From positions 1,568,001 through 1,632,000 of the forward strand of contig CBDBEV010000001.1 in the NCBI GenBank assembly GCA_965204535.1: DNA of 64,000 bases, written 5' to 3'. This document shows, in pieces, positions 6,072 through 49,145 of the stretch. Source of the DNA: a bacterium. GTDB taxonomy: Bacteria; UBA8248. Every line of letters starts with the position of its first letter. The first letter of the stretch is position 1. Position numbers and translations under genes: made by a program. Below the pieces are notes generated by a model, which saw only the letters and a program-made list of their open reading frames with translations, searched no databases and had not been told where the DNA came from.

Positions 6072-6288
6072 GCCGCCCTCTTCTTCTTCGGATGACGGAT
6101 GACGGATGACGGATGACGGATGACGGATGACGGATGACGGATGACGGATGACGGATGACGGATGACGGATGACGGATGACGGATGACGGATGACGGATGA
6201 CGGATGACGGATGACGGATGACGGATGACGGATGACGGACTGTAGCCGATGCCGCCGTCTCACGCAAGCTCTCTATACAGTTTTCCAT
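5998..6288 (-). CDS. Putative leader ORF spanning the heptamer tract
   Basis: ATG at 6288 preceded by GGGAGGG; reads through VIRHPSS repeats and overruns the autotransporter start out of frame. Confidence 0.4.
   Translation of the reverse strand: MENCIESLRETAASATVRHPSSVIRHPSSVIRHPSSVIRHPSSVIRHPSSVIRHPSSVIRHPSSVIRRRRGRHEMRPAKGRRATIGFSDSGRRLPS
6090..6236. repeat. Simple sequence repeat (GGATGAC)x21
   Basis: 21 perfect tandem heptamers counted directly. Confidence 0.97.
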
Positions 6289-8392: not shown

Positions 8393-8479
8393 ATGCGACC
8401 CACTCCTGGAAAGAGCACGCCGGGGCTTGATCATCGGCTACAGTCCGTCATCCGTCATCCGAAGAAGAGGGCGGCATGA
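8393..8479 (+). CDS. Putative leader peptide MRPTPGKSTPGLDHRLQSVIRHPKKRAA
   Basis: AAGGAGGG RBS before ATG 8393; contains 2 GTCATCC units; TGA overlaps the next ATG (ATGA at 8476-8479). Confidence 0.5.
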   Translation: MRPTPGKSTPGLDHRLQSVIRHPKKRAA

Positions 8480-10461: not shown

Positions 10462-10711
10462 TGGCGCAAGCGTCCCGGCGATGAGGGCCGGAGTGGGCCC
10501 CGTTGCCGTTCGCCTTGCCGGGCGGGAACAGCGCATTGCCGTGCATCCCCCCCAGGAATATTGCGTTTCAGGTTGTGGAGGGGGAGGATGCGGTGCGCAA
10601 TCGTCAGCACCGATGCCCACGCCGAACCTGCCGAAGAGTGGGCCGCGATCGAATACTGCATTGAAAGCGGGCGGACAAGACTCTTGCAGCGACCGGGCAG
10701 GAGGGGTCGTT

Positions 10712-11330
10712 TCAGCGGTTGAGGACCTGCTTCCAGTTATTTCGCAGCGGCCTTGGCCAGACGTCCTTTCCGGGCTTGTCGTATTGTCTGTCCCTGTCGT
10801 AGCGCCTTCGTCCCCGTGTGGTTCCAACGTGAATCCATCCCGATGCCCTGTAGAAGGCGCCGGTGCAGCGCGGCGTCTCGACGAAGGTCTCGACGAGGAC
10901 GGGGATCGTGCCATAGCGCTCGGTCCAGTCTCCGGGCAGGCGCCTGCGGATGATGGCGAGGAGGTGGGAGCCGGGATTGGGGATCCTGATCCATGGCAGG
11001 ATGAGGAACCTCGGGTTGTCGACCACGAGGGGGAGGTCCTTCTCGCGCAACTGCGGCGTCCAGCCGATGAAGCCGTCGCGCGGGGCGAGTTTCCATGCGG
11101 CGCTGCTGCAGCCGGGCATGGCGAGGGGCCTGCCGCCGGGGTAGTGGTAGCGGGCGACGAACTCGTTCCACAGCCTGCCCTCGCGGGTTCCGCGCACGAC
11201 GACGCGCATATCGGGGGGCGGACCTCATCGAGGGTCCCGGGCGCCGGGATGAGGGGAGCTTCGGTGTCGGGTCCGGATACGAATCCGCCCGATATTCGCC
11301 ATACTTCTCCCGCCAGGGACCGCCCGGCGG
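10712..11330 (-). pseudogene. DUF4338/DruA-like IS-associated gene, degraded
   Basis: LWNEFVARYHY, AAWKLAPRDGFIGW, RFLILPW, PVLVETFVE...YRASGWIHVGTT motifs; internal segment and N-terminus appear missing. Confidence 0.7.
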
Positions 11331-11360: not shown

Positions 11361-13016
11361 CTACTCCTCCTGCCGGTTCGCGCCGAACGCGCCGACCATG
11401 AGGCCATCATTCCCGTACGTCGAATGGAACACTCCGCCCACGACCTTCGGAACGCCGTCGTCGCCGTTGTCCATAAGATGACCGTTCCACCCGCCGTCGC
11501 CGGCGGCGGCCGTCCCGTCGATGGTCCACACCGTCTGCGCATACTCTGAACGGATGAAACTGATCGCTATGTCGCCTGTATTCGTGATGGAGGACTCCTT
11601 CAGCTCGACGGACCAGTTCCGCGCCCGGCCGTCCGCGCCCGTGAAGTCGTTTATGGCGCCCGAGATCATGTCGGTGTGGAAATCGGCCTCTAACGTCGCC
11701 GTCGCGGTGAAGCGGCCGGCGTCGTTCGTCCCCCCGGTGGGGCTCGAGAGAGCGTACAGGCCGGCGGCGCCGCCCCTGTACGTCGCCGTGCCGCGCAGGG
11801 CCGCGATGGTGGCCCCGGTGTCCGGGAGATCACGCTTCAGAAATAATGAGTACGCGGTATAGGTGTCGTCCGCGGACTTGTGGAGCCACCAGCCGTAGGA
11901 GGCATACTCCGTATCCGGCGAACTCATGACCCGGGCGTCCGGGTCCGCGGGCTTGAACGTCCAAACCGCATTGGCGGCGTCGAACGCGCCGGCGGCGGTG
12001 ACTCCGCCGAGATTGAAGCCCGGCCCGGCATGGCTGGCCGCGCACGTGCTTCCGTCAGCGGGATCGCAGCTGTACGTGCCCGGCACCCCGTGATAGCTGC
12101 CGGGGATCATCACGGCGACGTTGTTCTCGGGCAGCTTGAACCTCTTCAACCCCGCCGTATGGTCGAAGCTCGGGCTGGCAACCCGGCCGGCGGTGCCCTC
12201 GGTGGTCGTTTCGTCCAGCGTTCCGCCGGCGAAGCTGGCGCTGTACTGCGTCGAAAACTTCTCGCCCTCCTTCGGCTCCTCGACGTTCGAGTAGAAGACC
12301 GCCTCGTGTGTGCCACCACCTTCGGGCGCGGCCGTGTACCTCTTGCCTTCCCAGCCGTGGTTGGCGGCAACCATCGTCTGCTTGTCTTCCGACAGATAGT
12401 ATCTCGCAATTCCGAAATTCAGCGTTAAGCCGTCCGTTTCGAGGTCGGGATAGGTGCATCTTGGGTCAGATTCAAAGCAGGTTGATGGTGGAAGCAAAGG
12501 ATCATCGCCGAAGCCGTCGTACAGCTTCCTGGCGGTTTCGATCATGTCCGCCCTTGCCGCGTCGGCCGCCGCCTGCATCGCCGTCATGCGGGCCGTCCTG
12601 GCATTGTGGAAACGGGTCTCGAGCGCGGTGACGGTTCCGGTGTTCGCGGCCTTCTCCTCCGCCGGAACGCCGGCCGCCGCCGCTATCGCCGCCTTCGCCG
12701 CCGCGACCGCCGCCTCCGCGGCGCTCACCTCGGCGTCGGTGGAGTCGTCGTCCACCTCGCCTACCGCCGCCTGGGCGGCATCGAGCTTCATTTTGATGTC
12801 CGCGCGCTCCATGGCCAGGAGCTCCGCCGCCGTGACGCAAGCTCCGTCCATGTACCTGCCGCCACCGGCTTCACATGCCGCTTGCGGGTCCGGCATCTCG
12901 GCCGGCGTTTGCGCAGTGCCGCCGCCCCCGCCGCAGCCCGCCAGCGCAATCGTGAACGCCCCCGCCAGCGCGAAGGCGTAAAGCCTGTTTATCGGTTTCT
13001 CATATTTGAACGTCAT
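11361..13016 (-). CDS. Surface lipoprotein with Ala-rich stalk and TbpB-like barrel (paralog B)
   Basis: LAG-CGGG lipobox; YASYGWW, GTATYRGGAAGLY, MVGAFGANRQ. Confidence 0.8.
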   Translation of the reverse strand: MTFKYEKPINRLYAFALAGAFTIALAGCGGGGGTAQTPAEMPDPQAACEAGGGRYMDGACVTAAELLAMERADIKMKLDAAQAAVGEVDDDSTDAEVSAAEAAVAAAKAAIAAAAGVPAEEKAANTGTVTALETRFHNARTARMTAMQAAADAARADMIETARKLYDGFGDDPLLPPSTCFESDPRCTYPDLETDGLTLNFGIARYYLSEDKQTMVAANHGWEGKRYTAAPEGGGTHEAVFYSNVEEPKEGEKFSTQYSASFAGGTLDETTTEGTAGRVASPSFDHTAGLKRFKLPENNVAVMIPGSYHGVPGTYSCDPADGSTCAASHAGPGFNLGGVTAAGAFDAANAVWTFKPADPDARVMSSPDTEYASYGWWLHKSADDTYTAYSLFLKRDLPDTGATIAALRGTATYRGGAAGLYALSSPTGGTNDAGRFTATATLEADFHTDMISGAINDFTGADGRARNWSVELKESSITNTGDIAISFIRSEYAQTVWTIDGTAAAGDGGWNGHLMDNGDDGVPKVVGGVFHSTYGNDGLMVGAFGANRQEE

Positions 13017-13384: not shown

Positions 13385-15007
13385 CTACTGCTTGTTCACG
13401 CCGAAGGCGCCGACCATCCGGCCGGACGTGCTGTACGTCGAATGGAACGTGCCGGTCCCGACCTTCGCAACGCCGTCGTCGCCGTTGTCATAGAGAGCTC
13501 CGGACCACGCGCCGGCGGCGGCCGCGGCCGTCCCGTCGATCGTCCAGACCGTCTCGTTTCCGGCAGCGGCGGCAGTACCGTCACTACTGATTGCCCCGTC
13601 ATCGCCGACGGTGGACTTCTTCAACTCGACGGACCAGTTCCGCGACTGACCATCCGCGCCCATGAACTGGTCGATCGTGCCCGTGATCATGTCGGCATTG
13701 AAATCGGCTTCGAGCGTCGCCCGCGCGGTGAAGTGGCCGGCGTCGTTCGTTCCCCCGGTGGAACTGTAGAGAGCGTACTTGCCGGCGGCGCCGCCCATGT
13801 AGGTCGCCGTTCCACGCAGGGCCGTGATGCCGCTGGCGGGCGGGACGGTACCCCTGGCCGTCGCGAAAGCGCTCGCGGTGAAGGTCTCGCCGTCCTCGGA
13901 CTTGTGGATCCACCAGCCGTAGGAGACATACACCGTGTCCGCCACATCCGAGACCATGGCCGTCGGGCTGGTGGGCTTGAACGTCCAGGTCCCGCCGGCG
14001 AGGGTGAAGCCGCTTGTGGCTACGGTAGCGGAGCACGTGTTTCGATCAGCAGCAGCATCTGTAGGGGTGCAACTGTAAGTGCCGGACACCCCGTGATAGC
14101 TGCCAGGGATCATCACGGCGACGTTGTTCGCCGGCAAATCGAAGGTCTTGGTTCCTGCGGACTGGTCGAAGCTCGGGCTGGCAACGCGGCCCGTAACATA
14201 GCCAGTGAGGGCAGTGATATCCCCTGTTTCGCCGTCGGTGAGTGTGTACGCTTCATTGAACGGGTCGCCCTCCGTCGCGTCGCCGACGTTCGAGTAGACA
14301 TACGCCTCGTACGTGCCGGCATCGCCCGTGGGCTCGGCCGTGTGCCTCTTGCCCTCCCAGCCGTGGTTGGCGGCGACCGTCGTATCCTTGTCTACCGCCA
14401 GTGGGACGGTTGCGGCCGTGCCGATCGTCACGCTGATGACGCCGGCGGCGTCACTTGCGCCGGTTCGGACGTTGTCGGTATCGCCAAGGCCGTGCTCGAG
14501 GCCCTTGTATAGCTTACTGGCCGTCGCCATCATGGCCGCATCCGCGGCCTTCTGCTCATCGTCCATGGCGGCCATGCGGGCCATCTTGGCGGCGGCAAGC
14601 TGGGTTTCCAGCGCGGTGACCGTTCCGGTGTTCGCGGTTTTCTCTTCGTCCGGAATATTGGCCGCGGCCGCTATCGCCGCCTTCGCCGCCGCTATCGCCG
14701 CATCGGCCGCGCTCACCTCGGCGTCGGTGGAGTCGTCGTCAACCTCGTTGACCGCGGTGGTTGCCGCCATGATGGCCGTGCTGATGGCCGAGCGCTGCTC
14801 TGCCGCGAGATCCGCGGCCGAGGTGCAAGTGCCGTCCGCATTGTACCGACCCCCCTCATCCTCGCACGCCATTTGCGGGTCAGGCATATCGGTCGGCGTT
14901 TGCGTAGTGCTGCCGCCCCCGCCGCCGCAGCCGGCCAGCGCGACGGCGAACACGGCCGCCAGCGCGAAAGCGTAAAGCTTGTTTATCGGTTTCTCTTTGA
15001 ACATCAT
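13385..15007 (-). CDS. Surface lipoprotein with Ala-rich stalk and TbpB-like barrel (paralog A)
   Basis: LAG-CGGG lipobox; many blocks near-identical to 11361..13016; ends MVGAFGVNKQ. Confidence 0.8.
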   Translation of the reverse strand: MMFKEKPINKLYAFALAAVFAVALAGCGGGGGSTTQTPTDMPDPQMACEDEGGRYNADGTCTSAADLAAEQRSAISTAIMAATTAVNEVDDDSTDAEVSAADAAIAAAKAAIAAAANIPDEEKTANTGTVTALETQLAAAKMARMAAMDDEQKAADAAMMATASKLYKGLEHGLGDTDNVRTGASDAAGVISVTIGTAATVPLAVDKDTTVAANHGWEGKRHTAEPTGDAGTYEAYVYSNVGDATEGDPFNEAYTLTDGETGDITALTGYVTGRVASPSFDQSAGTKTFDLPANNVAVMIPGSYHGVSGTYSCTPTDAAADRNTCSATVATSGFTLAGGTWTFKPTSPTAMVSDVADTVYVSYGWWIHKSEDGETFTASAFATARGTVPPASGITALRGTATYMGGAAGKYALYSSTGGTNDAGHFTARATLEADFNADMITGTIDQFMGADGQSRNWSVELKKSTVGDDGAISSDGTAAAAGNETVWTIDGTAAAAAGAWSGALYDNGDDGVAKVGTGTFHSTYSTSGRMVGAFGVNKQ

Positions 15008-15263
15008 TTAGTGAGTCCTCCTGAATACACAGTAGAAAAAGGGATTTTCCGTGAATTTCCGGCTTTCTCCGATTAACCTCCTTTCGTCAGCTTTTTTTCG
15101 GGCCTTCACAAACTGGTGATTCGTACTTTCGGCCGCCTGAAATACGGCGGACTTGAACCCTTTCATGATCCGGGCCGGTGGTTCGGCGAGACACATGTTC
15201 CTGCGGCATGCGCCCACCGTTCCCGGCCTCCAGAGGCGAGCCGCCTGCCACCCGGCCTGCCCG

Positions 15264-15451
15264 CCGATAATCGTTATTATCAGATGTGAGAAGCCCCGTT
15301 TTCCGCCGGGAGAGGCGTTTCGGGGCGCATCCGGGCCGTAAATGAGCGGGAAAAGACGCAAAACGGCGCCCGAAACCACTCCGGGGACCCCGGAATTGCG
15401 CTTGACATGGCCTTGAGAGGTGTTATATTTTCTGATAATAACGATTATCGG
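15264..15451. promoter_or_regulatory. Putative invertible promoter 1 (21-bp perfect inverted repeats around a 146-bp segment)
   Basis: CCGATAATCGTTATTATCAGA at 15264-15284 and its exact reverse complement at 15431-15451; TTGACA(15402)-N16-TATATT(15424) with TG extension, pointing +. Confidence 0.85.
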
Positions 15452-15529
15452 ATGTTAATTGTTGTAAAGATGTGGTAAAAAAACCGTTTCCGGCGGGCGA
15501 TTCTTCGTCGTCCGCCTTATATATGTTGC

Positions 15530-16564
15530 ATGGAATCGGGACGGCAACTCCACGAACGTGAATCGCCGCCGGAACTTCAGGGCGCCGGCCGAACGACAGA
15601 TCACGGAGAACCATGGGCGAAACCCGCGGCGCCGGGGAGACGCTCCCCCCTGGAAAAACCCGACGAGAGTCACTCACCGCACCTCGGTTCGTTCCGGGCG
15701 TCGGCTGATCTGGTGCGCGCCTCGATCGCCGGGAACACGCGCCGCGCCTACGAGGCGGCGCTGCGCGGTTTCGAGGAATCGGGGTGCCCCGAGACCGACG
15801 CCGGGGTGGCGGCCTACCTCACGGGGCTCTACGGGAAGGGCCGCTCGGCGGCCTGCGCCTCGATGGCGGTCGCGGCGCTTCGGTTCCGGGCGAGGCTGGG
15901 CGGCCGCTCCTCCCCGGTGGGTCCTTCGGCGCTGCGCGCCCTGGCGGGCTTCAGGCGTCTGGGTTCGGAGCGGGGCCGCGGCCCGGTGGACGGGGTGCGC
16001 TGGGAGGAGGCGGACCTCGCGGCGGCGCTGGCCGAGGGGACGGGGACCCTGGGGGGCCTGCGCGACGCGGCGGTCGTGGCAGTGGCGAGCGACGCCCTGC
16101 TCCGGGTGTCGGAGGTCGCGGCTCTGGACGTCGCCGACGTGAACCTCGGGGAGCAGACGGTGCGGATCCGCCGCTCGAAGACGGACCAGGAGGGTGTGGG
16201 CGTCGTACAGTACCTCGGAGAACCGACCGTGGCGCGCGTCGGGGCCTGGCTGGCGCGCGCGGGTATCGGGGAGGGAGCGCTCTTCCGGGGCCTGTACAAG
16301 GGGGGACGGCTTCGGCCCGGGCGCCTGACGGACAGGAGCATCCGGAGCATCATCGCGCGGTGGGGGAAGGCCGCGGGCGCCGAGGGGCGCGTGAGCGGCC
16401 ACAGCCTCCGGGTGGGGGGCGCGCAGAGCCTGGCCACGGCGGGGGCGTCGCTGGTCGAGATGCAACTCGCCGGGCGCTGGCAGTCGCCGGCCATGCCGGG
16501 ACGCTACGCGCAGGGACAGATCGCGAAACAGGGCGCCGTGGCGAGGCTGCGATACGGCCTGTGA
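15530..16564 (+). CDS. Cre-like tyrosine recombinase 1
   Basis: NTRRAY N-domain; catalytic LLRVSE (R), SKTDQ (K), HSLR, GRW, RYA (Y); start codon uncertain. Confidence 0.92.
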   Translation: MESGRQLHERESPPELQGAGRTTDHGEPWAKPAAPGRRSPLEKPDESHSPHLGSFRASADLVRASIAGNTRRAYEAALRGFEESGCPETDAGVAAYLTGLYGKGRSAACASMAVAALRFRARLGGRSSPVGPSALRALAGFRRLGSERGRGPVDGVRWEEADLAAALAEGTGTLGGLRDAAVVAVASDALLRVSEVAALDVADVNLGEQTVRIRRSKTDQEGVGVVQYLGEPTVARVGAWLARAGIGEGALFRGLYKGGRLRPGRLTDRSIRSIIARWGKAAGAEGRVSGHSLRVGGAQSLATAGASLVEMQLAGRWQSPAMPGRYAQGQIAKQGAVARLRYGL

Positions 16565-16593
16565 GGTCCGTCCGTTTTCTCCCGAATATCTCT

Positions 16594-17277
16594 CTACCGC
16601 CTCTTCCTCCTCCGGGCGGAGGCCCACTTCTCGAGGTCTTCGAGCAGGTAGCGCACCCGGTATCCGATGCGAAGAAAATCCGGCCCCTCTCCGCTCACGC
16701 GGTAGCGCTCCAGCGTCTTGGGCGAGAGGCCGAGCCAGGCGGCCGCCTCCCGCGTGTTCAGGTGGTTCTCCTTCGCGCGCTCATCGGCGTCTCCCGCGGC
16801 CCCGGGTTCCCCGGCGGCGTCCCACGTCCCGTCGAACGGGTCGGGCAAGTCCGCGAGCCTCTCGCGTATGGCGCGGATCTCCTCTCCCGTCGCGTTGGCC
16901 GCCATCCAGGCGCGCACCCGGTCGAAGGTCTTGAGATACGGCGAGGCGCCCCGGCGCAGCCTCCCCACGAAGGAGGGATTCCCCACGGTCTCCTCGCCCA
17001 GGATCGAGACCTTGGTCCCGCTCACCACGAGAAACGCCTCCACCTCGGCCCGCAGGAGCGGTCCCAGCGGCGGATACCCCATGAACGCGAGCACCCGGTC
17101 CGCCGTGTCGACCCGCAGGGGCCGCCCCCGGGCCTGCAGGCCCACGAAGCCGGGAACCCCCAGCGCGCCCACCCCGAAGCGCCTCGCGCTCATCCCTCGG
17201 CGCGCGCGCCAGAGCGCAATGCTCCGGCGCAGCCGCTCGTCCAGCGGGGCGCCGGTATCGTCTTTAAACGCGGTCAT
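16594..17277 (-). CDS. Multi-HTH DNA-binding protein with C-terminal excisionase/AlpA-like HTH
   Basis: Two similar small Cro-like units (...FVG.L..G.....TxDRV.A.M) plus HLNTREAAAWLGLSPKTLERYR..GEGPDF.RIGYRVRY. Confidence 0.75.
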   Translation of the reverse strand: MTAFKDDTGAPLDERLRRSIALWRARRGMSARRFGVGALGVPGFVGLQARGRPLRVDTADRVLAFMGYPPLGPLLRAEVEAFLVVSGTKVSILGEETVGNPSFVGRLRRGASPYLKTFDRVRAWMAANATGEEIRAIRERLADLPDPFDGTWDAAGEPGAAGDADERAKENHLNTREAAAWLGLSPKTLERYRVSGEGPDFLRIGYRVRYLLEDLEKWASARRRKRR

Positions 17278-17477
17278 GGCGCGCGAACATAAGGAAAGGA
17301 CGAGCGCCCGTTCAATCGTTGTTTCTAGCGCGGAAGGTACACCCGGGAAGAGTCCGCGCCTGCGTTCGTGCGCGGACCGCTCATCGGTTCAGCCTGAAAT
17401 CACGGGCGTTTTCCAGAAAACGAAGGTCGCCGGAGAACGTGCAGCGGGGCGCTACGGAAAAAAAGGAACAATGTCGC

Positions 17478-17650
17478 TCACACCGCGGCGCCCTGTTTCA
17501 CGAGTCGCCCCTGCGCATGACCGGCGATTGGCGGCGCCCGGCGAGTTGCATCCCGACCGGAGAAGCCCCTGCCGCGGCAAGGCGCTGCGCGCTGCCCGTC
17601 CGCAGGTCGAAACGGCGCCGATTCCCTTGTTTCATTCGTTTTTATCGGAT
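17478..17650 (-). pseudogene. Remnant of a third recombinase module (C-terminus plus possible degenerate site)
   Basis: Minus strand reads LRTGSAQRLAAAGASPVGMQLAGRRQSP...AQGRLVKQGAAV, homologous to the recombinase C-termini; TCCGATAAAAACGAAT resembles the right IR. Confidence 0.65.
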
Positions 17651-17812
17651 CGTATGCTGATGTTCCGGGTCGTCCGCCAAATACAATACGGCCAAGCCGA
17701 AACTGGCGGACATTCCTTCGTGGATTGTATGCCAACGGCCCGGATTTTCCCGGTCCTGTCTGATTGACCGTTTTGCCTTACACGTCTTTCGATGATTGGT
17801 CGGGCATGGTGG

Positions 17813-18865
17813 TCACGCCGGTATTGCCGTCAGATCGGACAATTCGCCTTTCTCGAAGGTTTTGGGAGCCCACCCCGGCAAGAAGGGCGTATCCATGCGG
17901 TCGAGTTGCAAGGCGTCGCGCATCCCCTGGGGGATGCTGTCAAGCCATTCGGGTATACCCGGCAGGGGCGATGAATCGGGGTCGTAGTAGAGACCGCCCA
18001 TTTCGGGCATTCCGGTGTCAGGCCAATGGCCCTCGTCGCGCTTGAGCAGTTGCACCGGCCAGGGTTCCCTGCGGGTTTCCACCAGGAATATCTCGTCCGG
18101 CGCATTTGTGCACGCTGAGAGCAGCGAAGGGAGAAGATCTTCGCGGAATTCGAAGCTCGTAAGGCCCGGATCACCGCTTTCCAAAACCAGAACGGTACGT
18201 GCGCCATCCGCCTTGCAGGCCTGAAGCTTGGGGCATTTCCTGGAAAAGGCATCCCGGAGACTGTCCAAGCGCGGGCCTTCCATATCGTCCGGAGGAATGA
18301 ATCTGAACGAGAGTGAGCCTGGCTTTTTTTGCACGAACCGTGCAATCGGCCATTGCAGCAGTTCGAATTCACAGTCAAATCCCGGCGGGGTTCCATGAAT
18401 ACGATCATCGGACCAATAAGGATTGCGGATTGATAAGATTTGGCCGGAGCTCCGCTCGCGCAGGGATTTCTCGCTCGCGCGGATCCATTCGACGAGATCA
18501 CCAAGTGCCCGTTCTCTTTTTTTGACTCGGCCTTTGGGCAGGGAAACGTCAATCGGAAATTGCAGTTCGTAGTAGGCCGGGCTTGAGAATGGATCCGGGA
18601 TAGCTTTTCTGATGTGCTCGATGATTTGGTTCGCGACGACCACGATCGATGTCTGATTTTCGATCGACTCGATCCAAGTGTGCTCAATCACATATTCCCG
18701 GGAGCCGAGCTTCAGACGCAGATCGACAGGAGGACCGCCTCTCTCCTTGCCCGGATGGCGGACATCCGAGCGCGTCTCGCGTGTCCATTTTTCGAGGATC
18801 CTGACGACCGCGTCACACACCCTGCCCTCGTTGTTCGGCACGATCATGGCCGACGAATCCCTCAT
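17813..18865 (-). CDS. Hypothetical protein, possible PD-(D/E)xK-like fold
   Basis: 350-aa ORF with natural composition; PVDLRL...YVIEHT near the N-terminus. Confidence 0.55.
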   Translation of the reverse strand: MRDSSAMIVPNNEGRVCDAVVRILEKWTRETRSDVRHPGKERGGPPVDLRLKLGSREYVIEHTWIESIENQTSIVVVANQIIEHIRKAIPDPFSSPAYYELQFPIDVSLPKGRVKKRERALGDLVEWIRASEKSLRERSSGQILSIRNPYWSDDRIHGTPPGFDCEFELLQWPIARFVQKKPGSLSFRFIPPDDMEGPRLDSLRDAFSRKCPKLQACKADGARTVLVLESGDPGLTSFEFREDLLPSLLSACTNAPDEIFLVETRREPWPVQLLKRDEGHWPDTGMPEMGGLYYDPDSSPLPGIPEWLDSIPQGMRDALQLDRMDTPFLPGWAPKTFEKGELSDLTAIPA

Positions 18866-19574
18866 TTTCCCTGATTTACCCGTTCCCGCTCACGGGCCAT
18901 ATATTCTATCATGCCGCGTTTGTCTGCATCGACTCGCCAAGTGCGGTTATATGCCGGTCACCGCATCTCTATGTCCAATGCGGGTGTCCATGTACGTCCA
19001 CATACGGTCATCGATACGGGATCGGGAAAACGGTACTCGAACGGAAAACTTTCAAGCTCGCGTAATCGATTCGGACCGGTCCTTGCATCTCCATACGGGC
19101 CTGCGGCCAGGAAAATGTTTGCCGACACGGATTCGCCGGAGTGCGCGGCAGTTTTAATCAATCCGCTTTCATTTTGATTACGGGCCAACCAGGGAAGATT
19201 CATGGCAACCTGTTAACTAATTTTATTACAGCACCTTACAGGATAATCGAAAATGCCCGAAACTGCTCTTGTCTCTAAGACGATCGTAATACCGATGGAA
19301 GACGGACAGGCTCTTGTTGCCTTTTCCTTCCGTCGAGAGCCTTCACGTGGTGCTGTCGCCATCTCTCCTGCCCGTGCTTGATGCACAGCACCATGCCCTG
19401 TTCGATCGTGAAGTTTCCAAATCCTATGCCACTCGCGGGTATCGCGCACGATCCCGTGCCCTTTTCTTTCGGGCGTCGCGCCCCTCGCACGCGGCGGCGC
19501 GGGCAGGTAAGACATGACATAGGCGCAAAGCGCGAGAATCAGGTGAATAATGCGAACGAAACGAGCCCGCATCA

Positions 19575-21863
19575 TCATTTCCTGCGGTCGAGAGCCATCA
19601 GCAGAGGCGGAAGAAGGAGAAAGTCGGTGAGGAGTCCGAAGATGATCGTGATCGAGACCATGAGGCCGAGCGTCCAACTGCCCTCGTAACCCGATAAGGT
19701 GAACACCAGGAAGCCCGCCGACAGAACCACGGTCGTTGTCCAGAGCGCATTTCCAACGGTCTGGAAAGTGGCGCGCACGGCCTCGGGCGCGGAAAGCCCC
19801 TCGCGGCGGCTTTTCAGGTATTTGCTCAAAAAGTGAATCGTGTCGTCCACGATGATTCCGAAAGCGATGACGGTCATCACGGAGCCGGCAAGACTCACGT
19901 GGCTTACCAGATAACCCCACAGGCCGAAGGTCATGGCGGCGGGGATGAAGTTGGGCACGAGGCTGATGAGGCCCAGGCGCACGTTTTTGAAAACCAGGAT
20001 CAGAATCAATGAAATCAGGGTCATGCCGATGAACGTTCCGCGCAGCATGCTTTCCATGTTTCGTTGCGTGAGATGAGCGAAAATCATGCTTAAACCCGAT
20101 GCTTCGGCCGCGAATTCGGGTATGTTGGCGCGCAGCCAGGCCTGCGCACGCATATCGAGATTACGCAAGCCTCGAGCCGAGACCCCCTGGACCGTTACGG
20201 TCATTCGTGTTGCGGATTTCGCGACGTCGATGCGGTCGTTGAGGTCGGCGCCGAACGGAAGGGAAAACTCGTAAAGCAGCAGATATTGCGCGGCGAGCCT
20301 GGGGTTCTCAGGCAAACGATGGAAAGCCGGATCGTCACCGTGCATGTTCTTGTTCAGGCGCTTCATGATATTCGTGAAGGCCCGGACGTGGGTGACTTCG
20401 GGCTGTTTTCGGTACCAATCGGCGAAGGCCTCGACTTTTTTCAAGTATTCAGGGTCGGTAATGCCGCCCTCGCGCCCCGCTTTCAGCGAGTATTCCAGCG
20501 AATTGAGACCGGTCAGGTTCTTGATGACGAAATCCGTGTCGCGCCGGAACCGGTATCGCTCATCGAACTGTTTCGTCCAATCCTCGCTCAGTTCGTTTCG
20601 GGGGATGCCGGTGAGCAAAGCAATCGTCAAAATGGAGACGAACGAGAGCAGAAACGCGCGGCGTTCGACGACGAATGCGCCGAAGCGATCGAAAAAGCCG
20701 GACCCCTCATTGCGGCGGCGAGGCGCGCGCAGAGGCAGGATCGAGAGCAACGCAGGCAGAAGCGTCATGGAGTAGAAGAAGACGCACAAAACCCCGAACG
20801 CCACCAGATTGCCCAGTTCCTGAAAGGGCGGTGAATCCGAGGTGTTCAGGCTCAAGAACCCGATTGCGGTCGTTAGCGAGGTGAGAAAAACCGGCCAGAT
20901 GTTGCTGCGAAGCGATTCCATAATCGCCGCGTTCCTGTCCAGACCTTTTCGCATGGCCAGAAGAGTGGCCGAGACGATGTGGATCGAATGGGCAACGGCG
21001 ATCACCATGACGATGATCGGGAGGCCGGCGGTGATGGGGCTGAACACCAGGCCTGCCCACCCGGTGAATCCCATGGTGGTGTTGATGGAGAATATGATCA
21101 CGAAAACGATGGCCAGGGTGCCGAGTACGGAGCGAAGCAGAAGGGCCGTACCGATTATGACGACGAAAAATGCGATGGGCCCGATGTTCTCCATGGTACC
21201 CGCGGTAGCATCGGCGACGGTGCGGTTCAAGACGATGTTGCCGGTCAGGTAGTATTCAAAGTCGGGACGACTCGTGCGGGCCTTGCCCAGAAGGGCGTTC
21301 AGATAATCGGTTATCTCAACTGCCACATGTTCTTTTTTTTCGGGCAAGACGAATGTGATCGCCAACCCACTCACGCGCCCGTCCCGGGAGATCAGACGCC
21401 CGACGAGGTCTGCGGAGTTCAGCGCAGTCTTCCTGATTCTCGCGAGGTCGGCGTCACCGAGCGCGCTCGCGTCATCGACGAGCGGCTCGACGATCAAGTC
21501 ATCTCCCTCCGCCCAACTGTGGTTATAGTTCGTGAGAGAGTCGACCCGGCTCGAATGAGGCGTCTTCCAGGCGGCTTCGGTCAACTCCTCCATGGCGCCG
21601 AGCGCCCTGCGGGTGAACACCGAGCCCTCCCGGGGCGCAATGGCGATGAGCGCGGTATCGGACTTGGAATAGGTATTCTGCAAGGTATCGAAAGCGGCGA
21701 GTTGGGGATTGTCTTCGCCCAACAAAATACGATAATCATCCGAGACGGTGATGTAGCGCGCTCCCGCCGTCATAAGCGCCATGAGCAGAGAAACCAACCC
21801 GACGACCAGCCAACGGCGGCGCAGAACAAGGTCTGAATAGTGATCCACCTGCAAGAGATTCAT
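19575..21863 (-). CDS. MMPL/RND family transporter
   Basis: Two repeats of periplasmic loop plus TM bundle; SLTTAIGFLSL, GIIVDDTIHF motifs. Confidence 0.9.
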   Translation of the reverse strand: MNLLQVDHYSDLVLRRRWLVVGLVSLLMALMTAGARYITVSDDYRILLGEDNPQLAAFDTLQNTYSKSDTALIAIAPREGSVFTRRALGAMEELTEAAWKTPHSSRVDSLTNYNHSWAEGDDLIVEPLVDDASALGDADLARIRKTALNSADLVGRLISRDGRVSGLAITFVLPEKKEHVAVEITDYLNALLGKARTSRPDFEYYLTGNIVLNRTVADATAGTMENIGPIAFFVVIIGTALLLRSVLGTLAIVFVIIFSINTTMGFTGWAGLVFSPITAGLPIIVMVIAVAHSIHIVSATLLAMRKGLDRNAAIMESLRSNIWPVFLTSLTTAIGFLSLNTSDSPPFQELGNLVAFGVLCVFFYSMTLLPALLSILPLRAPRRRNEGSGFFDRFGAFVVERRAFLLSFVSILTIALLTGIPRNELSEDWTKQFDERYRFRRDTDFVIKNLTGLNSLEYSLKAGREGGITDPEYLKKVEAFADWYRKQPEVTHVRAFTNIMKRLNKNMHGDDPAFHRLPENPRLAAQYLLLYEFSLPFGADLNDRIDVAKSATRMTVTVQGVSARGLRNLDMRAQAWLRANIPEFAAEASGLSMIFAHLTQRNMESMLRGTFIGMTLISLILILVFKNVRLGLISLVPNFIPAAMTFGLWGYLVSHVSLAGSVMTVIAFGIIVDDTIHFLSKYLKSRREGLSAPEAVRATFQTVGNALWTTTVVLSAGFLVFTLSGYEGSWTLGLMVSITIIFGLLTDFLLLPPLLMALDRRK

Positions 21864-21967
21864 CGCCTCAGTGAGAAAGGCCGGGGATCGCTCCGCGTTG
21901 TACAACTCAAGCGCAAAGCAGTTGATTCACCTGGTGTATGCAATTCAAATCACGTCACAGGGATCGT

Positions 21968-23149
21968 TCACCATGGACTGGATTGCGAAGCGCGAACGTG
22001 ATCGGGCATCCTGTAGCTGATGCCTCCCCTGTCGTATTGCGCGGCGTCGAAAATCTGGGAGAACGCGTTTTGCCGGAAGAGCGCATTGCCACTCAGCATC
22101 TCGAAAAGGCGTTCCCTGAACCGGTAATAGCCCAGCACCAGGGTTCTGCTCCTCAGGGTTTTCGGATACTGGTAGGTGTCGGCGAGTTCGTTGCCTATGA
22201 GCGCTCGCGAGAGGCGGTAGGCGTACTTTTCCAGAGATTTGATTTGGGCTTCATCCGTCAGGCCCGACATTATCAGAATGGCCTTGAATACCGTATTCGC
22301 CACGGCCAGACAATCGGAGTCAGGCGGCGGTTCGCACATGGAAGCGACCTCGCGAAGGTCTCTGGCCTCTTGCTCGCTGGTGAACAGTATGGTTTCGGGA
22401 ACTCCAAGTAGATAGCCGGCGTAGCGCCAGATACTGACGATGCTCTCCTTTTCCTCCTGCGTGAGCCTGCCGCCCAGCGAAATCGCGTGTTCGAACTGGC
22501 GAATCGAGAAGGTGTACAGGGAAACCCCGCCTATGTGGGCCGCGCTCAGCGGCAACCCCCAGGCTTCGTGATCCCACTCGTCGGAATTCTTCAGCAGATG
22601 CCTGATCCGGGCATGGACGAAGCGGATGCGCATGGATATCTTCCATCCGTCGCCCTCTCTGCCCAGGCCGCCGGGAAAATATATCTCGACCATGTGGCGG
22701 TTGTTTTGCCGGAGGCGTCTGATGGCGCCGTCATCCAGTCCGGTCACGCGTCCGGTGATGAAGAAGGATTTGGCGACGAGCGTCCCGAAGCCTTCCACCG
22801 CGCTGCCGACGGCGTATGCGATGAGCATGTTGGTCATGTTTCTGTAGAAGGCGCGCATGCCCGGCCCGAAGGCCTCGAAGTCGACCCAGGGGGGCACGTC
22901 GGGATCGACTTTCTCGAAGAAATCGCGCAGGACTTTCGGCGCATCGCGCAGAACACCTTCATGCTGTTCTATGCCGGCCTCGATGAACGCGTGCAGATCA
23001 TAGGAAGGTAAAGAGGCAAGCTCCTCCATGACCGGGTCCAGGTCGGCATCGCCTATGGTGGTGTGCCGGATGTAGTTGTCCGCCGCCGCCTCATCGTGGA
23101 GGCGGGCTTCGGCGTAACCTTCGGTATACGCTGATGGACACTTCTCCAT
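21968..23149 (-). CDS. MpaB/DUF2236 (rubber-oxygenase-like) family oxygenase
   Basis: PPWVDF, TGR, RIRFVHARIR..L, WDHEAWGLPLS, WRYAGYLLGVPE. Confidence 0.8.
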   Translation of the reverse strand: MEKCPSAYTEGYAEARLHDEAAADNYIRHTTIGDADLDPVMEELASLPSYDLHAFIEAGIEQHEGVLRDAPKVLRDFFEKVDPDVPPWVDFEAFGPGMRAFYRNMTNMLIAYAVGSAVEGFGTLVAKSFFITGRVTGLDDGAIRRLRQNNRHMVEIYFPGGLGREGDGWKISMRIRFVHARIRHLLKNSDEWDHEAWGLPLSAAHIGGVSLYTFSIRQFEHAISLGGRLTQEEKESIVSIWRYAGYLLGVPETILFTSEQEARDLREVASMCEPPPDSDCLAVANTVFKAILIMSGLTDEAQIKSLEKYAYRLSRALIGNELADTYQYPKTLRSRTLVLGYYRFRERLFEMLSGNALFRQNAFSQIFDAAQYDRGGISYRMPDHVRASQSSPW

Positions 23150-23178
23150 ATCAGTATCCTCGCAATAGTTTCCGGCGG

Positions 23179-23484
23179 CTAAACCTCCGGTTGACCCACA
23201 GGAGCGTCCGCGGAACTCTCTTCAACCTTCATGCCGGCTGAAGACACTCCATGGTCAGGACCTGGCCGCCTGTCATCGTTTCTAGGGCCGCCGGAACATG
23301 CCGTTCTCTCGATGGCGGGAAACCGAATCCGCTTGTTTGCCAATTCGGGGTTACCCGCAAACCCTCTGGCCTCCTCTTTCATGTGCCTGATCGCCTTATC
23401 CAGCAAGTTCAAATGTTGAACCCGCCGCCGGCACCTCCATGCCACGATGACGGCCACAACCAGGAGTACGGCGATGTAAGTCAT
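23179..23484 (-). CDS. Small hypothetical membrane-anchored protein
   Basis: N-terminal hydrophobic helix; AAGGA RBS; first gene next to invertible promoter 2. Confidence 0.5.
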   Translation of the reverse strand: MTYIAVLLVVAVIVAWRCRRRVQHLNLLDKAIRHMKEEARGFAGNPELANKRIRFPAIERTACSGGPRNDDRRPGPDHGVSSAGMKVEESSADAPVGQPEV

Positions 23485-23540
23485 GACTTGTTTCCTTGGT
23501 CCGTCTCCAAAGGCGAGCCGCCTCGCATCCGGCCTGCCCG

Positions 23541-23739
23541 CCGCTAATTGTTATTATCGGATGTGAGAAGCCCCGTTCTCCGCCGGGAGAAGCGTTTCGG
23601 GGCGCATATGGGCCGTAAATGAGCGAAACATGAGCGAAAAAAGACGCAAAACGGCGCCCGAAACCCCTCCGGGGACCCCGGAATCGCGCTTGACATGGCC
23701 TTGAGAGGTGTTATGTTTTCCGATAATAACAATTAGCGG
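23541..23739. promoter_or_regulatory. Putative invertible promoter 2 (21-bp perfect inverted repeats around a 157-bp segment)
   Basis: CCGCTAATTGTTATTATCGGA at 23541-23561 and its exact reverse complement at 23719-23739; TTGACA(23690)-N16-TATGTT(23712). Confidence 0.85.
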
Positions 23740-23855
23740 ATTCCAAAAACCCGCCGTTTCGCCGGTATTCCCCTGCGAAACGGCTTTTTTTATTGGAAAT
23801 TCCCCGCCGTCGTCTATACTCGGCAATCGACGAGGCCCTGGAGCGGCCTCAGGGA

Positions 23856-24836
23856 ATGGAAACGGCCGCCGACCCGGAAGGTTGGCTTCTCGCCATGACG
23901 ACTGGGGCAACACCGCCCGACCCGGAACAGGACATCGCTTTGACGAGAAGGCCGGCCCGACCGGCCCGTGCGGCCGCCGACCTGGCGAAGGCGTCGATGT
24001 CTAAGAACACGCGGCGAGTGTACGAGACGGCCCTGCGGAGGTTCGAGCGCTCGGGAAACCCCGAGACCGACGCCGGGATAGCGGCGTACCTGGGGGATCT
24101 CTACGAACAGGGGCACTCGGCGGCCGTGGCCGCGATGGCGGTCGCGGCGCTTCGCTTCCGGGCGAAGCTGAACGGCCGGCCCTCCCCGGCGGGGGCGGCC
24201 TCGGAGCGGGTGCTGGCCGGCTTCAGGCGCCTGGCCGCAGAGCGCGGCCGCGGCCAGGTGGTGGGGGTGCGCTGGGAGCAGGCGGACCGCGCGGCGGCGC
24301 TGGCCGAGGGGACGGGGACCCTGGGGGGCCTGCGCGACGCGGCGATCGTGGCGGTGGCGAGCGACGCCCTGCTCCGGGTGTCGGAGGTCGAGGCGCTCGA
24401 CATCGAGGACGTGGACCTGAAGGAGCAGACGGTGCTGATCCGCCGCTCGAAGACGGACCAGGAGGGTGTGGGCGTCGTGCAGTACCTCGGAGAACCGACC
24501 GTGGCGCGCGTCGGGGCCTGGCTGGCGCGCGCGAGTATCGAGGAGGGAGCGCTCTTCCGGGGCCTGTACAAGGGGGGACGGCTTCGGCCCGGGCGCCTGA
24601 CGGACAGGAGCATCCGGAGCATCATCGCGCGGTGGGGGAAGGCCGCGGGCGCCGAGGGGCGCGTGAGCGGCCACAGCCTCCGGGTGGGGGGCGCGCAGAG
24701 CCTGGCCTCGGCGGGGGCGTCGCTGGTCGAGATGCAACTCGCCGGGCGCTGGCAGTCGCCGGCCATGCCGGGACGCTACGCGCAGGGACAGATCGCGAAA
24801 CAGGGCGCCGTGGCGAGGCTGCGATACGGCCTGTGA
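23856..24836 (+). CDS. Cre-like tyrosine recombinase 2
   Basis: Same catalytic motifs as recombinase 1; C-terminal half nearly identical to it. Confidence 0.92.
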   Translation: METAADPEGWLLAMTTGATPPDPEQDIALTRRPARPARAAADLAKASMSKNTRRVYETALRRFERSGNPETDAGIAAYLGDLYEQGHSAAVAAMAVAALRFRAKLNGRPSPAGAASERVLAGFRRLAAERGRGQVVGVRWEQADRAAALAEGTGTLGGLRDAAIVAVASDALLRVSEVEALDIEDVDLKEQTVLIRRSKTDQEGVGVVQYLGEPTVARVGAWLARASIEEGALFRGLYKGGRLRPGRLTDRSIRSIIARWGKAAGAEGRVSGHSLRVGGAQSLASAGASLVEMQLAGRWQSPAMPGRYAQGQIAKQGAVARLRYGL

Positions 24837-25058: not shown

Positions 25059-25873
25059 TTGCGCCAGGCTAAGCCCTGGAGAGGAGGATGCCATGACCTG
25101 GAACCTCTTATAGCGACTCAGCGGGTTCGACCCCCGTCCGGCAAAGGCGAAGCCGTCCAGCCAAAAGCGAGTCTTGCATGGCGTGCGGCAACGCGCGTCG
25201 TGAAGCGTCGACAGCAGGTGACGAAGCGGCGGGATAAGCCTCGAAATCGGCCAATCGATGACGCCTTCATTGTTAAGCAGGTGGGGGCAGCACCGGAAGC
25301 GCCGCTATCGGCGAGGCGCAACGGGTCGTCCGGGGTCGTGGGCCGGCGCAAAGTCACGGGATGGGTCGCCAGGGAACCTGGGAGATCCTGCTCCTGCCCG
25401 TGGGCAAGGATGCTGGAAAGGGGATGCCGGCATGCAAATCCAGGCCCCGGCCCGTCGCCGGGCCTGTACGGCGGCGGGAGCGCTATATGGCGGACACGAA
25501 CCCGGCAGGCGTCCGCGGAGCCGACCGGCGAAAACAATAAGCCGAAGGACATGCAAGGGCAGGAAGTCGTAGCGCCCTGATAGTACCGCTGAAGGCGGGG
25601 AACCGTGGCCATCGGGACCCGCCGGAGGGAAGCGGGGCGTCATCTGTACAGAGCCACTGATGGGAAACGTTGGAGGAAACCCTGAGTTCCACGAACACGT
25701 ACACGAAACAGCAGTGGATAGCCGAACAGGCGAGGGAGCGGTCATTCCTCGACCTGCGGATTAAGGGCGCAAAGCTCCTTGAGCGAACCTGTCAGGTGAG
25801 GAACCGAGTGCGTCAATCGCGCACGCTCGGGTCTGTGGGGGGCGGGGCGCAGCAATGCCCCCGCCTACCCGGC
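25059..25873 (+). mobile_element. Group II intron with internally deleted IEP (non-autonomous)
   Basis: 5' TTGCG; GGGAACCTGGGAGATCC end of domain I; ATAGTACCGCTGAAGGCGGGGAAC domain III; domain V GAACCGAGTGCG...GCACGCTCGGGTCTG; domain VI GGGGGCGGGGC...GCCCCGCCTACCCGGC; residual 71-aa ORF at 25670-25885. Confidence 0.85.
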
Positions 25874-41412: not shown

Positions 41413-41483
41413 CGATTCTTCCCCAATGAAAGCAAGGACTTATTTTCTCGCAATTGCGCAAATCGCGCCACCCCTCCCGAAAG

Positions 41484-41693
41484 GGGGTGTTGAAAATGCC
41501 TGCGTGGAGCGATTTTGGTTGAGCGCACGCTCTTGAAGTTCACTCCCCCCTTGAGGGGGAGTCGAGGAAGCCGAGCGGTTTGTGCGAAGGCTGACTCGGT
41601 GGGGGGTAAAATGCGTTTTATCGCCATTCCGAATTATACCCCCCACCGAATCGCTTTCGGGCTTACGCCCTCAGCTCTTCGACTCCCCCTCAA
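41484..41693. repeat. Palindromic REP-like element; right arm interrupted by IS1182 and resuming at 43205-43220
   Basis: CACTCCCCCCTTGAGGGGGAGTCGA...TCGACTCCCCCTCAA; near-identical inverted copy at ~45088-45300. Confidence 0.85.
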
Positions 41694-43204
41694 GGGGCTG
41701 TTGAAAAACCCTGTTTTGAAGCAGGGGGTATGGCGGCTCACGCGGCTTGGGATAGGAAGCCCAATCGGCGCGTGAGGCCGCGATATGCGCGCAGACGGCG
41801 TCTCCGGGCGGCCCAGGCCCTCCACAGAGCGAATATATCCGCCGCAAAAGCGGCGGCCAGCCGCTTGAGGTTCACCGCAGTCGCCGTCAGGTAGGCCTGG
41901 ATCCTCATGTTCGCAAGGCCCCGGCGCACCGCCCGCCCCAGTCCGTGCCGACTCTTCGCTTCGCCGTGGTAGCCCTCCGAACGCGACATGTGGCGGCGCC
42001 ACAGCCGGCCCTCCTCCTCCCCCCGGCGCGCGTGCCGCCGGCGCGCGCGCAACAGCGCCGGATATTCATGCGGAATCAGCACCGTCCTGCTCGTGTGCGA
42101 CTTGGGCAGACAATCCGACCTCAGCGCGCAGCCCGCGCAATCGCGCGTCCTCGAACCATAGTAGCGCCCCCGCTCCGTCTCCTTCCGGGGACGCAGCGTC
42201 TTGCCGCCCGGACACTTCACCACCTTGTGCCGCTCGTCGTAGCGGAACAACTGCAGCGGAACACGGCTCTGGGAAGGCTCCTTCTTCGCCGGTATCAGCG
42301 CATCAACACCCCGCCGCTCCAATCCCGCATACACCTTCGAGTACGCATAACCACTATCCGCCGTCACCACCGCGGGCGCGCGACCCGTGAGCTCGCAAAC
42401 CGCATCCAACTGCGGCTCCATCATCTCCCGCTCGTTCAACGTCCCCGCCGTCACCTCTACGTCGAGGACAACGCCCCGCTCGTCGTCCACCACCGCGTGG
42501 TGCTTGTAGCTCGGCTCGAACCCCGCCCGAGCGCTCTTGCGCGCCAGGCGCGCGTCGGGGTCCGTACGGCTCACCGGACCCGAACCCCCGCCCTTCTTCC
42601 CCGCCTCATCCGCCGAGTCGTTCTCCCGCACCACCTTCTCCGCGTGGCGCGCCGCCAGACTCTCCCAACTCACGTCCGCGCGTATCAAAGACGCGTCCAT
42701 GTGAACCACTTCCCCCTTCGCCACCTGCGCCTCCAGGCACGCCTGAACCGTGCGGCGCAATATCTCCTTGAACCGCGCCTCCCCCCACCGCTGGCGAATC
42801 CGCGTCAGGCTCGAATGATCCGGCAACTCCTCGTGCAGCTCGTAACCGATGAACCACCGGATCGCCAGGTTCACCTGCGCCTCGCGAAGCAGATGCCGGT
42901 CGTGAACGTGGCCCAGCAGAAGACCCGCCAGCATCAACCGCACCACCACTTCCGGGTCGATCCCCGGTCGACCGTTGTCCGCGCAATAGCACTCCGCCAC
43001 CTCCTCGCGAAGCCAACTCAAATCCAGTACGCGGTTCACCCGGAACAATATGTAATCTTCGGGAATCAACTGCTCCAGCGAACCGGCCACGAACAATTCC
43101 ATCTGCCCGCGCCTCTTGCGGTCCAACATCGGGGAATCTCCCATCTCGGGCGAGGGGGGATAACTCCATACGATCATAAAACCAGGGGTTTTTCAACAGG
43201 CCCC
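41694..43204 (-). mobile_element. IS1182-family insertion sequence
   Basis: Terminal IRs GGGGCTGTTGAAAAACCC / GGGGTTTTTCAACAGGCCCC; TCAA on both flanks (exact boundary ambiguous in the G/C runs). Confidence 0.9.
41738..43129 (-). CDS. IS1182-family DDE transposase
   Basis: GRPGIDPEV, LPDHSSLTRIR.R, MDAS, SRTDPDA, ADSGY, C..C.LRS.C, EG.HGE.K..HGL. Confidence 0.92.
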   Translation of the reverse strand: MLDRKRRGQMELFVAGSLEQLIPEDYILFRVNRVLDLSWLREEVAECYCADNGRPGIDPEVVVRLMLAGLLLGHVHDRHLLREAQVNLAIRWFIGYELHEELPDHSSLTRIRQRWGEARFKEILRRTVQACLEAQVAKGEVVHMDASLIRADVSWESLAARHAEKVVRENDSADEAGKKGGGSGPVSRTDPDARLARKSARAGFEPSYKHHAVVDDERGVVLDVEVTAGTLNEREMMEPQLDAVCELTGRAPAVVTADSGYAYSKVYAGLERRGVDALIPAKKEPSQSRVPLQLFRYDERHKVVKCPGGKTLRPRKETERGRYYGSRTRDCAGCALRSDCLPKSHTSRTVLIPHEYPALLRARRRHARRGEEEGRLWRRHMSRSEGYHGEAKSRHGLGRAVRRGLANMRIQAYLTATAVNLKRLAAAFAADIFALWRAWAARRRRLRAYRGLTRRLGFLSQAA

Positions 43205-43443
43205 TCAAGGGGGGAGTGAATTTCCTCTCTCCTTGGGTTGTAATAACCCTTAAGGGGGGAGTGATTTGGCCCGACCCGCAAGGACTTCTCCAACAACCCG
43301 CAAAACGGCGGGACGATTTCACCCGCGCGTGAAATGTGATAGAAGCTGATCGCGGTTTCGGCGCAGCGCGCCGGGCCGCTCTCATGCGGGGCAACCATCT
43401 CCTCCGGCGTCGCCACCCAAAACATGAAGGCAGCCATCCGAAA

Positions 43444-44160: not shown

Positions 44161-44163
44161 TCC

Positions 44164-44952: not shown

Positions 44953-44990
44953 GGGCGCGCTCCGGTTAGGAGGTCAAACGCGAGGGAGGA

Positions 44991-45307: not shown

Positions 45308-45469
45308 CTCAAGGGGGAAGTGGTTCTTCCTCTTTAATCAGTTGCCAATGCCCCTCAAGGGGGAGCCCGCAGGGGCGGTTCGCGAACGGTGGGGCGGACA
45401 AATAGGTCCGCCCCTACCTCATTTTGAAACCGGAATCAGGCGCCATGGAAACCCGAAGGAGAGACCCTC

Positions 45470-45865: not shown

Positions 45866-45914
45866 CTTCTTCTCCTGTGTGTATGACTTCCGCACGAACA
45901 AAGGGAGCGCACGC

Positions 45915-46274: not shown

Positions 46275-46296
46275 GCGCGCGGCCCCCATGAACTCT

Positions 46297-49019: not shown

Positions 49020-49050
49020 GAGGGGATGTTCGCGTGATGCGGTGGTGGCT

Positions 49051-49123: not shown

Positions 49124-49145
49124 TGGGATGGCGAACAAATCGGAA

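Follow-up and report, generated by a model that had tools for sequence, protein, structure and literature searches.

The window, a stretch of 64,000 nucleotides, carries two copies of a module in which a short stretch between genes, flanked by inverted repeats and containing a promoter (a consensus match), separates a Cre-like tyrosine recombinase gene from divergent cargo genes (Table 1). A switch is called OFF here when its promoter would be aimed at the recombinase and ON when it would be aimed at the cargo. The two modules lie 8,277 bp apart, in agreement with the initial annotation, which had reported that the module recurs 8.3 kb away. Each copy had also been credited with a perfect inverted repeat, and this was borne out by 21-bp pairs at 15264–15284/15431–15451 (copy 1) and 23541–23561/23719–23739 (copy 2). 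The pairs differ at site positions 4, 9 and 19, each altered in both arms of its pair, and position 9 alone falls within the 6-bp core (TCGTTA in copy 1, TTGTTA in copy 2), so that the three matched differences, one of them central, are as first described. No minus-strand promoter consensus was found before the cargo of either copy.

Table 1. Features of the two modules and adjoining genes, by position in the window
Feature	Positions	Strand	Basis
Second lipoprotein paralogue, in tandem behind the first	11361..13016	-	sequence
Copy 1 cargo: 540-aa lipoprotein (LAGC lipobox), predicted NHBA/fHbp/TbpB-like barrel	13385..15007	-	sequence and predicted fold
Copy 1 cargo-side site: CCGATAA, core TCGTTA (15271–15276), TTATCAG	15264..15283	+	sequence
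Copy 1 sigma-70-like promoter TTGACA-16-(TG)TATATT	15402..15429	+	consensus match alone
Copy 1 recombinase-side site, core again TCGTTA (15439–15444)	15432..15451	-	sequence
Copy 1 Cre-like recombinase, 344 aa; leader and core-binding domain differ from copy 2	15530..16564	+	PF00589
HTH_17 gene, convergent with the copy 1 recombinase; multi-copy, often follows a recombinase	16594..17277	-	domain match
MMPL/RND transporter, downstream of the oxygenase	19575..21905	-	domain match
MpaB/Lcp-family oxygenase, atypical cargo of copy 2	21968..23149	-	Pfam (PF09995)
101-aa ORF, hydrophobic N-terminus; first gene read if copy 2 flips; may not be a gene	23179..23484	-	
Copy 2 short remnant of the family's cargo-side flank; homology with copy 1 begins here	23505..23540	.	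comparison with copy 1
Copy 2 cargo-side site: CCGCTAA, core TTGTTA (23548–23553), TTATCGG	23541..23560	+	sequence
Copy 2 predicted invertible segment, core to core; OFF here (promoter towards recombinase)	23548..23732	.	break points of flipped paralogues and orthologues
Copy 2 sigma-70-like promoter TTGACA-16-(TG)TATGTT, directly before the recombinase-side site; kept across the family	23690..23717	+	consensus match alone
Copy 2 recombinase-side site, core again TTGTTA (23727–23732)	23720..23739	-	sequence
Copy 2 Cre-like tyrosine recombinase, 347 aa from TTG (326 aa from ATG 23856)	23793..24836	+	PF00589, alignment

Several further elements were noted around the modules. A remnant of a recombinase C-terminus lies in opposite orientation behind the HTH_17 gene (17515–17606, minus strand), and similar remnants occur at other modules. 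A match to group II intron domains D1–D4 (RF02005) at 25128–25345 continues to about 25870, where its end resembles domains V/VI, and contains no ORF of any length; it is preceded by a PF14236-like fragment that is repeated at 10703–10903. A long tandem repeat of 7 bp (CGGATGA) is located at 6089–6246 near the 5′ end of an autotransporter-type gene, with a short version at 8432–8461 before an RTX-repeat gene, and these repeats are a possible slipped-strand switch.

Assembly of the two copies and extent of the switch family

The initial annotation had named an assembly artefact as grounds for discarding its reading, and short-read contigs were inspected for this. The genome was binned from a metagenome, with contamination of 5.26% and some stretches duplicated, and no contig among those listed bridges both copies, their adjacency resting on the assembly. 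Each copy was nevertheless recovered with its own flank: the left site of copy 2 with 0 differences (X1 record 6; X2 record 14, 20339–23668) and the right site of copy 1 with 0 differences in X1 record 2 and 5 differences in X2 record 9, X1 being possibly the source sample. The copies also differ at many places, and a sister genome has 16 modules. An artefact is thus unlikely for the two modules, and the chance that it explains both copies is close to nil. An apparent joint 15452–23753 (a skip of 8,300), considered as a deletion between the copies, was rejected because the intervening letters match the flank of paralogue E14.

The described second copy is a real module but proved to be one of 17 in the genome (E01–E17), each a segment of 190–200 bp. 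There are 8 full recombinases; at two further switches the adjoining recombinase is a fragment, and seven have none. Each end of a switch is a 7-6-7 palindrome, CCGnTAA-6 bp-TTAnCrG. The 6-bp core was the same at both ends in all 16 complete elements of the genome (E01 is incomplete, a contig end cutting inside its core), compared with at most 9 matches in 200,000 shuffles. The variable arm positions matched no more than by chance (position 4 in 3/16, positions 17–19 in 6/16). Perfect 21-bp inverted pairs at a spacing of 100–300 bp are common in this genome (106, nearly all from other short repeat families), so the signal lies in site anatomy and core matching, not in repeat length. Abundant REP-like short repeat families form more than 100 inverted pairs genome-wide and are present in the window at 41469–55605.

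Across this and related genomes, 59 complete pairs were collected from this genome, 16 sister-genome loci, 20 other loci of the genus and further loci, with two unpaired loci left out. Cores were matched in 58 of the 59, comprising 24 core types; all six core positions vary and the flanking TAA/TTA are fixed. The single mismatched pair, at core position 6, is at L046 of the sister genome (G002) beside a truncated recombinase, which makes it a candidate locked switch. The window copies are the only two of the 59 pairs in which the full 20 bp match, the core alone matching elsewhere, and in copy 2 the outer arm on the recombinase side has the variant of the cargo side, suggesting that conversion reached past the core. 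Of 22 other genomes of the genus, 11 had a DNA match of switch length, and the exact promoter pattern had 0 matches in JGI metagenomes. The closest labelled homologues are in Nitrospinota bins and the labelled runs containing the stretch are mostly sponge metagenomes, so the host is likely a sponge-symbiont Nitrospinota.

Evidence for inversion

Seven of the 59 elements were flipped, with the break inside the sites: outer arms keep with their flanks and inner arms move. Orientation was called by flank composition, which agrees with gene positions. Two loci were in opposite orientation in this genome and its sister. The syntenic switches E12 (OFF, core TTGCTA) and L054 (ON, TTGCTG) have flanks collinear at 89–97% and an inverted middle of 206 bp, and E13 (ON) and L044 (OFF) both have TTGCCA, with flanks and cargo in common. 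A short-read contig (X3 record 23) matched the flipped junction of E07 with no difference. These comparisons bear out the original claim of an invertible switch and show that inversion has happened between genomes.

Both orientations at one locus within one sample were not seen in the contigs, which drop minority forms, and contigs run unbroken through the left site of copy 2 in the OFF state. Two opposite-strand joints were rejected as flips: a joint 571–723, where a copy 1 contig had been matched to paralogue E07, and a joint 23599–23723, which is most simply a flipped paralogue and is not assignable to copy 2. Contig C1 of the genome starts and ends inside the cargo-side core of E01 with a 4-base overlap, and the coincidence of the assembly break with a switch may mean that the reads contained both orientations. 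Stretches of about 15 kb at both ends of contig C2 are 99.6–99.9% identical to C1 (G000:C1 183–221 kb), so C1 and C2 may belong to a single chromosome, connected by way of a repeat.

The switches might instead flip rarely, or have flipped in the past, as slowly spreading mobile or duplicating units whose orientation is fixed between lineages. Such a history would fit the lack of within-sample heterogeneity in the contigs, the truncation of several recombinases and the location of the modules among IS and intron remnants. The loss of minority variants from contigs weakens the first of these points, however, and 8 recombinases are intact. Moreover, cores are matched in 58/59 pairs yet change between orthologous loci, for which repeated recombination would be needed. 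Rare flipping is consequently regarded as unlikely.

It was also considered that the repeats are operators or a resolution site (rst of TnpS/TnpT, or att of an integrative element) and not the ends of an invertible promoter. One of the sites covers the likely start of transcription, distant homologues have single sites upstream, an excisionase-like HTH gene often follows, and rst likewise has inverted repeats between divergent genes (PMC7157771). The sites described here, however, are inverted complete palindromes of which flipped copies exist, and the 3′ ends of the lipoprotein genes are generally without a site. A TnpT helper was not found across the site, the divergent genes being lipoproteins or other cargo, and no match was obtained with PF11740, which stood in for TnpT. 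The nearest tRNA to any element is 3.9 kb away, by which tRNA-targeted integration was rejected, and integron-like cassettes were rejected given that lipoprotein 3′ trailers lack a site except at one place. Overall, an operator or resolution role in place of inversion is highly improbable.

Two observations were made at locus L159. Two tandem 901-aa lipoprotein genes (G000:C2:561574–564279 and 564388–567093) lie behind the flipped switch E07. A lone site with the copy 1 core TCGTTA (G000:C2:561247–561266) has a piece of cargo-side flank before it and is directly joined to a lipoprotein 3′ trailer, and looks like an aberrant join.

Recombinases and their relation to the sites

The two recombinases of the window had been described as nearly identical in the catalytic half and divergent at the N-terminus, and alignment agreed, identity rising from 24% (leader) through 67% (core-binding domain) and 86% (linker) to 94% (catalytic domain). 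Residues R174, K199, H273, R276, W299 and Y308 (326-aa numbering) were invariant in 10 aligned proteins, and the six catalytic residues were found in all 8 paralogues of the genome. The 17 best PDB sequence matches were all Cre or its derivative Tre, with XerC/XerA-like proteins far behind. Consistent with the description of Cre-type systems (PMC10250229), the residues equal Cre R173, K201, H289, R292, W315 and Y324, the length is within 300–400 aa, and a palindromic target with an 8-bp spacer, of which 6 bp are exchanged, is less than 1 kb from the gene. The 13-bp half-sites of those systems were lacking, conservation stopping after 7 bp; longer arms were limited to some distant homologues, such as L069 and L070. 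Against the FimB/FimE-type model the enzymes scored 20–24 bits, with cut-offs of 221–222, and at 326–347 aa compared with about 200 aa they fall outside that group.

The initial annotation had proposed that homologous recombinases be searched for upstream inverted pairs. In a motif-based scan, matched inverted pairs were present at 16 of 78 loci (11 Nitrospinota-type and 5 Acidobacteriota) and at 0 of 145 controls, whereas a generic best-inverted-repeat scan upstream of homologues gave no separation from controls. For the Acidobacteriota pairs, 8/10 cores match and 2/10 differ by one letter. Of 68 distant homologues, 14 (one lying at the edge of its locus) had the motif GATAA-N6-TTATC in the 450 bp upstream, compared with 12 of 915 control windows, an enrichment that ties the site to the Cre-like enzyme family. 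Among 138 more distant metagenome and viral homologues none had a matched pair and 21 had a single site. The likely origin of the switch is the addition of a second inverted site to a promoter–site–recombinase unit.

Single lox-like GATAA-N6-TTATC sites with arms of up to about 13 bp lie just upstream of the distant homologues L069, L070, L071 and L108, which are candidate recombinase/site pairs. Four Latescibacterota records (L096, L102, L103 and L104) have a different inverted pair upstream of the recombinase, of 19–20 bp, spaced 250–420 bp apart and with TTGAC adjoining one end. This is a probable further switch type.

The initial annotation had interpreted the two copies as orthogonal invertase/site pairs. 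Under such a model each recombinase would have co-evolved with its own site through the N-terminal domain, and cores would have been selected as orthogonal to give independent, dedicated switches. Besides the core, two arm positions distinguish the window copies, whose core-binding domains are only 67% identical, and across all 27 modules domain distance correlates with arm (rho 0.43) and core (rho 0.27) distance (P≤0.004). This correlation is confounded by shared ancestry, which predicts it, and the covariation between site and N-domain that was to be checked was not detected by Mantel tests within the genome (8 modules) or with the sister genome added (14). The core-binding domains of copy 2 and E16 are 100% identical and their cores are 2 letters apart, copy 1 and E06 have one core in common and domains 66% identical, and identical domains adjoin different arms too, and the reverse. 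The segment aligned to one Cre helix, presumably helix J, is identical in both window enzymes. Seven switches are without any recombinase with which a site could be paired.

Core usage bears on the same question. In three other genomes all fetched cores were distinct (7/7, 4/4 and 4/4), as dedicated pairs would predict. In this genome, however, the 17 switches have 13 core types, four of which are each used by two loci, and the 16 loci of the sister genome have 8. This diversity is at chance level (13 against 12.1 expected, P=0.35; 8 against 7.4 in the sister genome). Dedicated pairs are not supported by these data and we consider them very unlikely.

Paired changes in the two arms had been taken to imply selection or active recombination. 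The matched cores (16/16) and flipped copies favour recombination, whereas selection for distinct cores was not detected (P=0.35). The core mismatch had further been expected to block cross-recombination between the copies, and so deletion. It need not do so: mismatches do not strictly block Cre (PMC1479339), and a difference of one letter may be tolerated. In addition, copies 1 and 2 have in common an identical stretch of 166 bp in direct repeat, which is open to homologous deletion, and the core mismatch would by itself leave the intervening DNA unprotected. The six-letter core probably limits cross-talk among switches. Of the proposed two independent switches with four states, the difference in core between the copies stands, but the number was understated for a genome with 17 switches.

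Cargo, proposed mechanism and related systems

The flipped promoter would face a lipoprotein paralogue at 13/17 loci. Other cargo comprised a secreted Calx-beta/cadherin-like protein, two other proteins with a similar C-terminal motif and the genes of copy 2. The lipoprotein had 745 database relatives among 7,996 candidates scored. Its single-sequence model reached pLDDT 47, and an alignment-based model of the C-terminal 367 aa (68 of 120 listed sequences aligned) reached pLDDT 90. The top structural matches were NHBA, TbpB, fHbp and HpuA, with a weak whole-chain TM of 0.26–0.31 by query. NHBA, fHbp, TbpB and HpuA are Slam-dependent surface lipoproteins. Like them, the cargo has a lipobox, a flexible linker and a predicted handle and C-terminal TbpB/fHbp-like beta-barrel, and a PF04575 Slam-family gene is present in the genome, adjoining one lipoprotein paralogue. 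Unlike them, it has a helical N-terminal stalk and no Pfam or NCBIfam match, at 9–20% identity. A leader of about 230–250 bases (about 15010–15260 in the window), common to about 13 loci, separates the start of the lipoprotein gene from the cargo-side site. Rfam gave no family in the switch or this leader, which is a possible structured 5′ UTR.

The cargo of copy 2 is of a different kind. Its 101-aa ORF had no Pfam match and no homologue in the genome or the fetched loci. Oxygenase homologues are present in 20 of the 22 other genomes of the genus, and this genome has several MMPL paralogues. Of 12 oxygenase loci of relatives, five were compared with the window and none of the five matched the switch, from which we infer that the oxygenase–transporter cargo is a late capture.

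The 7-6-7 sites, the matched cores, both orientations with the break in the sites and the intact catalytic residues can be read directly from the sequences. Taken together, it is probable that the 17 promoter-like segments, bounded by inverted lox-like sites with a matched 6-bp core, are inverted by a shared pool of Cre-like recombinases and switch their neighbours, mostly predicted surface lipoproteins. Any of the 8 recombinases would act on any switch, since the arms are shared and seven switches have no adjoining recombinase. Strand exchange across a mismatched core would leave one core per strand, and replication would then give daughters each matched at both ends, so that cores would stay matched with no need for selection. 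Recombination of mismatched lox spacers is described as giving two sequence pools (PMC1479339), and heteroduplex spacers are described for Clostridioides difficile switches (PMC12282940). Core differences would lower, not abolish, recombination between loci. Copy 2 would be a module that came to lie before an oxygenase–transporter operon.

The arms are asymmetric among the 59 pairs, departing from consensus in 54 cargo-side outer, 40 cargo-side inner, 4 promoter-side inner and 11 recombinase-side outer arms. In the OFF state the two weak arms are on one site in 53/59, and 52/59 switches are OFF. Both weak arms together in the OFF state would cause most switches to rest OFF, whereas no bias is predicted for the two copies in the window, which are symmetric whichever way they face. 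The LE/RE lox sites are lox66 and lox71. By analogy with the double-mutant product of LE/RE sites (PMC1479339), weak arms on the cargo side predict an OFF bias. The frequency of ON was no lower with two weak arms (4/38, compared with 3/21 for others, related genomes not being independent), which lends the bias model no direct support, and the strong site may be kept as an operator instead. More tentatively, the family could form a natural multiplexed Cre/lox switchboard, with 17 switches served by one recombinase pool, heterospecific cores insulating them and LE/RE-type asymmetry keeping most OFF, each cell showing few of more than 12 surface lipoproteins; this we consider possible but doubtful.

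The closest parallel in organization is with the RecV switches of C. difficile (PMC12282940, PMC5903667), where several chromosomal switches likewise draw on one shared supply of tyrosine recombinase. As here, their ends are palindromes of a binding motif round a 6-bp spacer, the same at both ends of one switch and varying from switch to switch, for which a ‘spacer code’ has already been proposed (PMC12282940). RecV is described as one distant enzyme without an N-terminal domain, acting on six switches with unique spacers, whereas in the family here 17 paralogous switches are nearly identical and 8 Cre-type enzymes are encoded locally; the arms are of 7 bp, the cores are not unique, the promoter within is sigma-70-like and the cargo is a single paralogous family. 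The 59 site pairs test the code proposed from six switches: within-switch matching holds (58/59) and uniqueness fails (17 switches use 13 types in this genome, and 16 use 8 in its sister).

The mrp element of Proteus mirabilis with MrpI (PMC7444556), fimS of E. coli and mad of Photorhabdus (PMC5903667) similarly combine an adjoining recombinase, an invertible sigma-70 promoter and surface genes; the family here differs in its Cre-like enzyme, multiple copies and lipoprotein instead of fimbrial cargo. Cre/loxP and mined Cre-type systems (PMC10250229, PMC1479339) provide the closest solved structures, the same R-K-H-R-W-Y set and a palindromic site beside the gene, and the 6 bases exchanged here correspond to loxP spacer positions 2–7 (PMC1479339). 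Unlike Cre/loxP, conserved half-sites are about 6–7 bp, not 13, an inverted site pair about 150–160 bp apart surrounds a promoter, and the role is likely regulation as opposed to phage or plasmid resolution. In the Mpi regulon of Bacteroides fragilis at least 13 invertible regions similarly control symbiont surface molecules (via PMC5903667), through a single serine recombinase, where the present family has tyrosine enzymes with lox-like sites. The literature searched, which covered few subscription papers, yielded no account of Cre-type invertible promoters as a family in sponge symbionts, and the main texts of PMC11602134 (DeepInverton) and PMC10839748 made no mention of such switches in sponges or Nitrospinota.

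Judged by sequence, the modules are a real multi-copy family of Cre-type invertible promoters, for which we infer live switching and insulation. The family suggests that uncultured sponge symbionts vary their surface by means of recombinases, and copy 2 suggests that a module can put a metabolic operon under a switch. It also makes available a Cre-type enzyme whose site is 20 bp long, for which 24 cores occur naturally and a directional bias is predicted. If the switchboard reading is true, these cores would be a ready set on a very short site, and the uncultured sponge symbiont would have combinatorial surface variation, with the same design in Acidobacteriota symbionts.
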